From Escherichia phage T7: DNA of 39,093 bases. The stretch lies in the sequence record AY264775.1; one strand, written 5' to 3'. A program made the position numbers and the translations under genes. This document shows positions 4,987-17,562 of the stretch, piece by piece (positions within the stretch are counted from its first letter, which is position 1; each line of letters begins with the position of its first letter). The notes under the pieces were generated by a model that saw only the letters and a list, made by a program, of their open reading frames with translations, was not told the origin of the DNA and did no database searches.

Positions 4987-5009
4987 CAATACGACTCACT
5001 ATAGAGGAA
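4987..5009 (+). promoter_or_regulatory. T7 promoter phi1.1A
   Basis: caatacgactcactatagaggaa. Confidence 0.85.
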
Positions 5010-5010
5010 C

Positions 5011-6763: not shown

Positions 6764-6919
6764 ATGTTTAAGAAGGTTGGTAAATTCCTTGCGGCTTTGG
6801 CAGCTATCCTGACGCTTGCGTATATTCTTGCAGTATACCTTCAAGTAGCACTAGTAGTAATTGGCGCTTGTTATTTAGCGACAGTGTGTGCTTGCGTGTG
6901 GAGTATAGTTAACTGGTAA
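6764..6919 (+). CDS. 1.4: gp1.4, small hydrophobic protein
   Basis: 51-aa ORF MFKKVGKFLAALAAILTLAY... Confidence 0.75.
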   Translation: MFKKVGKFLAALAAILTLAYILAVYLQVALVVIGACYLATVCACVWSIVNW

Positions 6920-6939
6920 TACGACTCACTAAAAGAGGT
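6917..6939 (+). promoter_or_regulatory. T7 promoter phi1.5 (variant: A at +1)
   Basis: taatacgactcactaaa|agaggt; every other class II promoter in the window has G at +1. Confidence 0.8.
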
Positions 6940-6946
6940 ACACACC

Positions 6947-7039
6947 ATGATGTACTTAATGCCATTACTCATCGTCATTGTAGGATGCCTTGCGCTCTAC
7001 TGTAGCGATGATGATGATATGCCAAATGGTCACGCTTAA
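6947..7039 (+). CDS. 1.5: gp1.5 (30 codons here; contains a GAT x4 run)
   Basis: ORF MMYLMPLLIVIVGCLALYCSDDDDMPNGHA. Confidence 0.7.
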   Translation: MMYLMPLLIVIVGCLALYCSDDDDMPNGHA

Positions 7040-10380: not shown

Positions 10381-12479
<2,099 letters not shown>

Positions 12480-13082: not shown

Positions 13083-13490
13083 ATGCGTGACCCTAAAGTT
13101 ATCCAAGCAGAAATCGCTAAACTGGAAGTTGAACTGGAGGACGTTAAGTACCATGAAGCTAAGACTCGCTCCGCTGTTCACATCTTGAAAAACTTAGGCT
13201 GGACTTGGACAAGACAGACTGGCTGAAAGAAACCAGAAGTTACCAAGTTGAGTCATAAGGTGTTCGATAAGGACACTATGACCCACATCAAGGCTGGTGA
13301 TTGGGTTAAGGTTGACATGGGAATTGTTGGTGGATACGACTACGTCCGCTCAGTTAGTGACAAATATGCACAAATGTCATACATCACAGATGTTACTCCA
13401 CGCGGTGCAATCGTTACCGATAAGACCAACATGATTCACACAGATTTCTTGACAGTTGTTTCATATGAAGAGATTGTTAAGTCACGATAA
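13083..13490 (+). pseudogene. 4.7: gp4.7 reading frame interrupted by an in-frame TGA at 13224-13226 (codon 48 of 135)
   Basis: ATG at 13083 after phi4.7 and an SD; same frame continues to the stop at 13488-13490; the track splits it into ORFs 12954..13226 and 13248..13490 in one frame. Confidence 0.8.
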
Positions 13491-15638: not shown

Positions 15639-15995
15639 ATGAACGAAAGACACTTAACAGGTGCTGCTTCTGAAATGCTAGTAGCCTACAAATTTACCAA
15701 AGCTGGGTACACTGTCTATTACTCTATGCTGACTCAGAGTAAAGAGGACTTGGTTGTATGTAAGGATGGTAAATTTAGTAAGGTTCAGGTTAAAACAGCT
15801 ACAACGGTTCAAACCAACACAGGAGATGCCAAGCAGGTTAGGCTAGGTGAATGCGGTAGGTCCGAATATAAGGATGGAGACTTTGACATTCTTGCAGTTG
15901 TGGTTGACGAAGATGTGCTTATTTTCACATGGGACGAAGTAAAAGGTAAGACATCCATGTGTGTCGGCAAGAGAAACAAAGGCATAAAACTATAG
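15639..15995 (+). CDS. 5.3: gp5.3
   Basis: 118-aa ORF. Confidence 0.85.
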   Translation: MNERHLTGAASEMLVAYKFTKAGYTVYYSMLTQSKEDLVVCKDGKFSKVQVKTATTVQTNTGDAKQVRLGECGRSEYKDGDFDILAVVVDEDVLIFTWDEVKGKTSMCVGKRNKGIKL

Positions 15996-16006
15996 GAGAA
16001 ATTATT

Positions 16007-16306
16007 ATGGCTATGACAAAGAAATTTAAAGTGTCCTTCGACGTTACCGCAAAGATGTCGTCTAACGTTCAGACAATCTTAGAGAAAGATATGCTGCATC
16101 TATGTAAGCAGGTCGGCTCAAGTGCGATTGTCCCCAATGGTAAACAGAAGGAAATGATTGTCCAGTTTCTGACACACGGTATGGAAGGATTGATGACATT
16201 CGTAGTACGTACATCATTTCGTGAGGCCATTAAGGACATGCACGAAGAGTATGCAGATAAGGACTCTTTCAAACAATCTCCTGCAACAGTACGGGAGGTG
16301 TTCTGA
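16007..16306 (+). CDS. 5.5: gp5.5, H-NS-binding protein
   Basis: 99-aa ORF MAMTKKFKVSFDVTAKMSSNVQTILEKDMLHL... Confidence 0.9.
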   Translation: MAMTKKFKVSFDVTAKMSSNVQTILEKDMLHLCKQVGSSAIVPNGKQKEMIVQFLTHGMEGLMTFVVRTSFREAIKDMHEEYADKDSFKQSPATVREVF

Positions 16307-16515
16307 TGTCTGACTATCTGAAAGTGCTGCAAGCAATCAAAAGTTGCCCTAAGACTTTCCAGTCCAACTATGTACGGAACAATGCGAGCCTCGTAGCGGA
16401 GGCCGCTTCCCGTGGTCACATCTCGTGCCTGACTACTAATGGACGTAACGGTGGCGCTTGAGAAATCACTGCTTCCGATATTCGCTTTCTGAAACGAATG
16501 AGAGGATGTGTCTAA
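16306..16515 (+). pseudogene. 5.7: gp5.7 (inhibitor of sigma-S RNA polymerase) interrupted by an in-frame TGA at 16459-16461 (codon 52 of 69)
   Basis: MSDYLKVLQAIKSCPKTFQSNYVRNNASLVAEAASRGHISCLTTNGRNGGA*EITASDIRFLKRMRGCV*. Confidence 0.8.
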
Positions 16516-16673
16516 TGTCTCGTGACCTTGTGACTATTCTACGCGATGTGTGAAACGATATACAGGGCTACATCGACTCTCTGGAACGTGAGAACGATAG
16601 CCTTAAGAATCAACTAATGGAAGCTGACGAATACGTAGCGGAACTAGAGGAGAAACTTAATGGCACTTCTTGA
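16515..16673 (+). pseudogene. 5.9: gp5.9 (RecBCD inhibitor) interrupted by an in-frame TGA at 16551-16553 (codon 13 of 52)
   Basis: MSRDLVTILRDV*NDIQGYIDSLERENDSLKNQLMEADEYVAELEEKLNGTS*. Confidence 0.85.
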
Positions 16674-17562
16674 CCTTAAACAATTCTATGAGTTACGTGA
16701 AGGCTGCGACGACAAGAGTATCCTTGTGATGGACGGCGACTGGCTGGTCTTCCAAGCTATGAGTGCTGCTGAGTTTGATGCCTCTTGGGAGGAAGAGATT
16801 TGGCACCGATGCTGTGACCACGCTAAGGCCCGTCAGATTCTTGAGGATTCCATTAAGTCCTACGAGACCCGTAAGAAGGCTTGGGCAGGTGCTCCAATTG
16901 TCCTTGCGTTCACCGATAGTGTTAACTGGCGTAAAGAACTGGTTGACCCGAACTATAAGACTAACCGTAAGGCCGTGAAGAAACCTGTAGGGTACTTTGA
17001 GTTCCTTGATGCTCTCTTTGAGCGCGAAGAGTTCTATTGCATCCGTGAGCCTATGCTTGAGGGTGATGACGTTATGGGAGTTATTGCTTCCAATCCGTCT
17101 GCCTTCGGTGCTCGTAAGGCTGTAATCATCTCTTGCGATAAGGACTTTAAGACCATTCCTAACTGTGACTTCCTGTGGTGTACCACTGGTAACATCCTGA
17201 TTCAGACCGAAGAGTCCGCTGACTGGTGGCACCTTTTCCAGACCATCAAGGGTGACATCACTGATGGTTACTCAGGGATTGCTGGATGGGGTGATACCGC
17301 CGAGGACTTCTTGAATAACCCGTTCATAATCGAGCCTAAAACGTCTGTGCTTAAGTCCGGTAAGAACAAAGGCCAAGAGGTTACTAAATGGATTAAACGC
17401 GATCCTGAGCCTCATGAGACGCTTTGGGACTGCATTAAGTCCATTGGCGCGAAGGCTGGTATGACCGAAGAGGATATTATCAAGCAGGGCCAAATGGCTC
17501 GAATTCTACGGTTCAACGAGTACAACTTTATTGACAAGGAGATTTACCTGTGGAGACCGTAG
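16660..17562 (+). CDS. 6: 5'-3' exonuclease (gp6)
   Basis: 300-aa ORF. Confidence 0.97.
   Translation: MALLDLKQFYELREGCDDKSILVMDGDWLVFQAMSAAEFDASWEEEIWHRCCDHAKARQILEDSIKSYETRKKAWAGAPIVLAFTDSVNWRKELVDPNYKTNRKAVKKPVGYFEFLDALFEREEFYCIREPMLEGDDVMGVIASNPSAFGARKAVIISCDKDFKTIPNCDFLWCTTGNILIQTEESADWWHLFQTIKGDITDGYSGIAGWGDTAEDFLNNPFIIEPKTSVLKSGKNKGQEVTKWIKRDPEPHETLWDCIKSIGAKAGMTEEDIIKQGQMARILRFNEYNFIDKEIYLWRP

Follow-up and report, generated by a model that had tools for sequence, protein, structure and literature searches.

The window analysed here, which is the complete 39,093-nucleotide stretch deposited as Escherichia phage T7 record AY264775.1, carries gene 5.7 flanked by 5.5 and 5.9, with an ATGA overlap at its start and a TAATG overlap at its stop. 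The ATG of gene 5.7 (16306-16308) shares bases with the TGA of gene 5.5 (16304-16306), and its original TAA (16513-16515) shares bases with the ATG of gene 5.9 (16515-16517). The locus and its immediate neighbours comprise the following features.

16007-16306, + strand: gene 5.5 (H-NS inhibitor), intact though with three missense changes, and sharing a base of its TGA with the 5.7 ATG (ORF list, T7 alignment).
16306-16515, + strand: gene 5.7 in its full original extent, with 69 codons and the original TAA, a pseudogene in this genome (aligned to NC_001604 17150-17359).
16306-16461, + strand: translatable ORF, which covers gp5.7 residues 1-51 and ends with the premature TGA (ORF list: 51 aa, MSDYLKVLQ...NGRNGGA).
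16459-16461, + strand: premature opal codon, TGG to TGA, W52*, with G as the next base (T7 alignment).
16462-16515, + strand: orphaned tail, codons 53-69 plus the original TAA (T7 alignment and homologue alignment).
16515-16673, + strand: gene 5.9 (RecBCD inhibitor), with a W13* opal codon at 16551-16553; also a null allele (T7 alignment).

The preliminary description had placed the start of gene 5.7 at 16306, overlapping the 5.5 stop, and had read codon 52 as TGA (16459-16461); both statements agree with the sequence and the ORF list, and the first also with the T7 alignment. The TGG to TGA transition that it proposed was confirmed by alignment with T7 NC_001604, in which gene 5.7 is read in the frame claimed and codon 52 is TGG (17303-17305), encoding Trp rather than a stop. 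The 17-codon tail was indeed found in frame, ending at 16513-16515, and the anticipated loss of the C-terminal quarter corresponds to a product of 51 of 69 residues, with 26% of gp5.7 lost. Because codon 52 is TGA, the intact ORF of about 69 codons that includes W52 and helix α4 (F61, L62) is not present here, and, judged by its sequence, 5.7 in this genome is a disrupted allele of the gene rather than a functional member of Gp5.7.

Comparison of the locus with T7 showed identity at 204 of 210 nucleotides. The six nucleotide differences, against 2.2 expected (P=0.026), are a synonymous change at Y4, S45N, W52*, G58D, T59I, and G66R, and 64 of the 69 codons give the same residue as in T7. Three of the missense changes lie in the tail past the stop, one of them at the conserved G58. 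T7, isolate P, and isolate P82 all have TGG at codon 52, and the 26-mer bearing the TGA did not occur in IMG/VR, where the TGG version was present in four contigs.

Gp5.7 is a wHTH-like inhibitor of the host EσS and Eσ70 holoenzymes. The T7 protein matched PDB 5LGM (E=7e-43), which is the structure of T7 Gp5.7 (Tabib-Salazar et al. 2017 NAR, 2018 PNAS), and 1275 of 1282 phage records matched at least 80% of its length. Pfam yielded no family for either gp5.7 or gp4.7, and the family membership of both therefore rests on direct homology. When gp5.7 was aligned with its natural homologues, nine in all and as little as 46% identical, W52, F61, and L62 proved invariant; these homologues are annotated as 69 residues long, except for the protein of Vibrio phage ICP3 (65 residues). 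Gp5.7 has a compact, winged-helix-like α1-α2-α3-β1-β2-α4 fold with a core of four helices, and alanine scanning showed that more than 90% of its activity is lost when any one of six conserved residues, including W52, is replaced; the W52A protein loses structural integrity by NMR, and R60 and R64 contact DNA (PMC5569994). C68Y is among the 5.7 mutations that allow T7 to escape a dCTP-deaminase defence (bioRxiv 10.1101/2021.04.26.441389). The tail left untranslated here holds helix α4, F61/L62, R60/R64, C68, and probably the end of β2.

Translation of this allele would end at UGA-G and yield a 51-residue fragment lacking W52, helix α4, and the basic DNA-contact residues R60/R64, which is expected neither to fold nor to inhibit host RNA polymerase. 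Since W52 is invariant, since the W52A protein is inactive and unfolded, and since α4, R60/R64, and C68 are lost with the tail, the fragment is almost certainly unfolded and inactive, which would make the allele a null; the published W52A data likewise predict loss of binding to RNA polymerase and σS region 4 and of repression of the A1-A3 promoters. A hypomorphic or neomorphic allele, with a fragment that is partly or differently active, might be argued from the retention of α1-α3, β1, and the functional residues F18, R24, and L42 in residues 1-51, but we consider it very unlikely, given that W52A by itself abolishes activity and folding, that helix α4 is part of both the hydrophobic core and the basic patch, that C68Y and other point changes inactivate gp5.7, and that Gp5.7 is a single small compact domain. 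Compared with wild-type T7 5.7 (PDB 5LGM), the locus and its overlapping start and stop signals are alike, whereas here β2/α4 is untranslated and S45N, G58D, T59I, and G66R are added.

As a presumed null, the allele is predicted to be equivalent to the published gp5.7 deletion phage, which is viable, lyses its host at ~70 min versus ~50 min, and forms plaques that are ~30% smaller (PMC5569994). Phage without 5.7 is more clearly handicapped when σS accumulates (bioRxiv 10.1101/262279). A high-throughput knock-out study classed 5.7 and 5.9 as conditionally essential, less so in its UTI host strains, and placed 4.7 among the low-essentiality genes (PMC11482910). On growing E. coli, T7 is slowed only mildly by loss of gp5.7.

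The stop in gene 5.9, whose wild-type protein matched Pfam PF25708, is also a TGG to TGA change and lies 90 nt downstream of the 5.7 stop, so that two adjacent small genes are knocked out. The third and last nonsense change of the genome is located upstream, in gene 4.7.

13083-13490, + strand: gene 4.7, with a W48* opal codon at 13224-13226 (T7 alignment).

Gene 4.7 contains 11 differences from T7 in 408 nt, against 4.3 expected (P=0.005), with nine amino-acid changes. The excess of changes in 5.7 and 4.7, together with the missense changes past the 5.7 stop, is consistent with relaxed constraint. The record of isolate K115 calls its 4.7 merely 'similar to gene 4.7'. Gene 4.7 is also disrupted, independently, in isolate P82, in which the start region is altered and the annotation has been dropped.

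To place these stops in the context of the whole genome, we compared the window with T7. The alignment extends from T7 base 25 to base 39936 with ~99% identity and one gap of ~810 bp; at the very ends, the record lacks the outer bases of the 160-bp terminal repeats. The differences comprise 413 substitutions, two 3-bp indels, and the early-region deletion of ~810 bp, a single-base gap at 1728 being counted as the alignment edge of this deletion. The indels are an in-frame gain of GAT within the (GAT)n run of gene 1.5 (7007-7009) and an in-frame loss of 3 nt from an A-rich stretch early in gene 1.7 (~7356). With 199 G>A and 191 C>T changes, 390 of the 413 substitutions (94.4%) are G:C>A:T. The per-site rate of change of G depended on the preceding base, at 3.8% after G, 2.8% after A, 1.0% after C, and 0.7% after T, and RG sites were mutated about four times as often as YG sites (chi-square P=5e-32). 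In lacI mutation spectra, a 5'-purine-G bias is the signature of SN1 methylating agents, N-methyl-N'-nitro-N-nitrosoguanidine among them. A mutagen of the nitrosoguanidine type therefore probably induced the roughly 390 G:C>A:T transitions, including the 5.7 TGA, which would have arisen by O6-alkylation of the TGG codon at its last G, in a 5'-GG-3' hotspot context, and subsequent mispairing with T.

Only three annotated genes contain a premature stop, 4.7 (W48*), 5.7 (W52*), and 5.9 (W13*), and each of these is a TGG to TGA change at the second G of GG, the hottest context. In total, 188 of the 191 TGG codons of T7 are kept, and all 54 annotated stop codons, 19 of which are TGA, are unchanged. 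Suspected ATG>GTG start-codon changes in genes 2.8, 6.3, 7.7, 17.5, 19, and 19.2 were discarded, as reference T7 already has GTG at these starts.

The 5.7 TGA is a single-base difference from T7, and a base-calling or assembly error in a phage that really has TGG and an intact 5.7 would also account for it: K115, in which the region is deleted, gives no corroboration, and the Ns and odd transversions in the K115 record suggest imperfect sequencing within the series. However, the change is of the dominant mutation type in the hottest context, the 210 nt of 5.7 contain five more G:C>A:T changes, and the sibling records flag comparable pseudogenes (4.7 in K115, 0.4 and 4.2 in isolate P), so that we regard an error as highly improbable.

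We then asked how the substitutions are distributed between genes that T7 needs and genes that it does not, using the context-specific synonymous rate as the neutral expectation and a division into essential and non-essential genes that we assumed on the basis of T7 genetics, with 4.7, 5.7, and 5.9 taken as non-essential. Essential genes showed no nonsense changes against 14.5 expected (Poisson P=5e-7) and a missense observed/expected ratio of 0.46, whereas in non-essential genes three nonsense changes were seen where 4.2 were expected, and the missense ratio was 1.26. The T7 RNA-polymerase promoters were unchanged from -17 to -1 in 17 of 17 cases despite about 1% genome-wide divergence. Thus, purifying selection has acted strongly on those parts of the genome whose function the phage needs, dispensable parts are decaying neutrally, and the stop in 5.7 is what such decay would be expected to produce. 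In a wild genome such a stop would exceed chance; in one with 413 substitutions it is at the level of chance.

Several single changes were seen in regulatory elements. Among the T7 promoters, the only changes are G>A at +1 of φ1.5 (6917-6940) and one at +5 in each of φ1.1A (4987-5010) and φ4c (11810-11833). In addition, one C>T was seen in the early terminator TE, and one G>A upstream of the -35 element of promoter A3.

The same data bear on whether the UGA in 5.7 could be decoded, by programmed read-through, as Trp, or as selenocysteine, to give full-length gp5.7. UGA is the leakiest stop in E. coli and its near-cognate tRNA-Trp would restore the Trp, and the 5.7 tail is still in frame. We nevertheless consider such recoding extremely improbable. 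All 54 annotated stops, including the 19 TGA codons, still end genes; no in-frame TGA occurs in essential genes; and the retention of nearly all TGG codons runs against a shift in the meaning of UGA. The RNA 3' of the 5.7 UGA folds no better than shuffled sequences (MFE -8.8 kcal/mol, z=+0.48), Rfam gave no match, SECIS included, in 16200-16800, and the tail has gained missense changes, including that at G58. UGA is thus neither tolerated in essential genes nor unused as a terminator here, and it is not followed by a stable 3' structure at 5.7. E. coli tRNA-Trp does read UGA at a low level, and traces of a full-length, four-fold substituted gp5.7 could be produced by such misreading.

To investigate the origin of the genome, we compared it with its sibling records, AY264774 (wild-type T7+ stock), AY264776 ('T7 isolate K115'), AY264777 ('isolate P'), and AY264778 ('isolate P82'). 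We take the series AY264774-AY264778 to be that of Bull et al. 2003, from the Bull/Molineux experimental evolution work. Among the matches listed when 1.1-kb and 20-kb segments were compared with the phage collection, there were only ordinary T7 records, at ~99% identity. K115 showed 99.9% identity to the window and had 384 of the 413 substitutions in common with it, as well as the GAT insertion in 1.5, the 3-nt deletion in 1.7, and 4.7 W48*. Unlike the window, K115 lacks the segment 16005-16641, which contains 5.5, 5.7, and most of 5.9, and it also lacks 1481-2235, which enlarges the 0.6-0.7 deletion. The sequences at these deletions are as follows.

15988-16001, + strand: left copy of a short direct repeat, AACTATAGGAGAAA, in the gene 5.5 ribosome-binding region (K115 comparison).
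16642-16655, + strand: right copy of the short direct repeat, AACTAGAGGAGAAA, in the gene 6 ribosome-binding region (K115 comparison).
1728-1734, + strand: deletion junction with CCGCAAG microhomology (T7 alignment).

The 16005-16641 deletion of K115 thus lies between near-identical ribosome-binding-site repeats, and because K115 deleted it, the 5.5-5.9 region is dispensable for the lineage. The deletion at 1728-1734 in the window spans about 810-812 bp; gene 0.6 loses its 3' end by it, and the kinase gene 0.7 its 5' half. A deletion equal in size to this one appears to be present in isolates P and P82. About 30 further changes distinguish K115 from the window; these are mostly transversions (A>C, T>G), with several Ns, and at five sites the T7 base has been restored. 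Such a spectrum differs markedly from that of the earlier G:C>A:T phase and might stem from recovery passages without mutagen or from a sequence of poorer quality. From these comparisons, the window, in which 5.7 and 5.9 are still there as nonsense pseudogenes, most probably represents an earlier state and the parent of K115.

Isolate P represents a sister lineage that was mutagenised likewise but independently, with 301 substitutions, 95% of which are G:C>A:T; for P and P82 together, the ranges are 301-318 substitutions and 92-95% G:C>A:T. The nonsense changes of isolate P are only TGG>TGA and fall in the non-essential genes 0.4 (W28*) and 4.2 (W59*), and isolate P, unlike the window, kept 5.7 and 5.9 intact. 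The window and isolate P have 22 changes in common, gp5.7 S45N among them, and several of these, being other than G:C>A:T, probably represent stock differences from the reference. The window thus combines hundreds of substitutions dominated by G:C>A:T, the RG bias, and derived changes in common with K115, as a member of a nitrosoguanidine-mutagenised T7 series would. From the sequence and the sibling records we infer the identity of both the lineage and the mutagen.

Taken together, the 5.7 TGA is very probably a loss-of-function nonsense allele of a dispensable gene, produced by alkylating-mutagen G:C>A:T change in a bottlenecked laboratory T7 lineage. This would be lineage K of the Bull/Molineux/Hillis experiments, a laboratory T7 taken through serial bottlenecks, in which nonsense mutations in essential genes would have been purged. 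As a mildly deleterious null, the 5.7 allele could therefore be fixed at single-plaque bottlenecks under heavy mutagenesis, presumably by drift or hitch-hiking, and the dead 5.5-5.9 block would have been deleted later, in the descendant K115. In a passage of another paper (PMC4811365), Bull et al. 2003 is cited as a case of random mutations fixed through extreme bottlenecks.

The adjacent stops in 5.7 and 5.9, with about 0.1 nonsense hits expected in each gene, lie somewhat closer together than expected under a uniform model, and this is a point in favour of positive selection, rather than drift, for the knock-out of 5.7 (and 5.9) under the passage or mutagen conditions. The probability that at least two of the three stops fall in the 5.7/5.9 pair, worked out by hand from the expected counts, was ~0.006, rising to roughly 0.1 when corrected for about 25 adjacent pairs. 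K115 removed precisely the 5.5-5.9 region, and inactivation of 5.7 is favoured elsewhere, for example when T7 has to escape nucleotide-depletion defences. On the other hand, the total of non-essential nonsense changes (3 vs 4.2) and the missense ratio of about 1.26 are compatible with neutrality, growth of the gp5.7 deletion phage on ordinary E. coli is impaired rather than improved, and the sister lineage P has both genes intact. Deletions are moreover common in T7 passage lines and may be favoured just for genome shortening. We therefore consider selection for the knock-out unlikely and retain fixation of a mutagen-induced null at a bottleneck as the preferred explanation.

On this explanation the 5.7 stop is ordinary and already explained: a well-characterised gene has been disrupted here, and the feature is of no new kind. 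Its interest is mostly gone because Trp-to-opal changes are also found in 5.9 and 4.7, because 94% of the substitutions are G:C>A:T, and because the genome belongs to a deposited lineage that was mutagenised on purpose in the laboratory. Genes 5.7, 5.9, and 4.7 in this genome should be annotated as pseudogenes, and the genome should be seen as a mutagenised laboratory derivative of T7 and no natural variant. Its genome-wide pattern is a clean illustration of purifying selection, with little significance beyond annotation.

The combination of lesions can also be compared with mutants obtained under phage defence. T7 5.7 escape mutants were recovered from strains expressing dCTP deaminase or dGTPase (Tal et al., bioRxiv 10.1101/2021.04.26.441389); these lost 5.7 by point mutation, premature stop, or frameshift, some with a lesion in 0.7, and a 5.7 null together with a 0.7 lesion is the genotype that reportedly escapes these defences most fully. 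The window resembles them in having a 5.7 stop and a 0.7 deletion. Unlike those defence-selected mutants, however, its 5.7 lesion appears to come from random mutagenesis, with no sign of such a defence. A broader reading, in which the 5.7 and 5.9 knock-outs, the 0.7 deletion, and the later 5.5-5.9 deletion all reflect selection to shed modulators of host RNA polymerase and RecBCD during laboratory or mutagen passage, is unlikely in our view. If it were true, a by-product would be a 5.7-null and 0.7-null lineage that escapes dCTP deaminase and dGTPase and fails to trigger RADAR2. On hosts with nucleotide-depletion defences, phage without gp5.7 and gp0.7 is predicted to plate more efficiently than wild-type T7. 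Gp5.7 has also been reported as a trigger of RADAR2.
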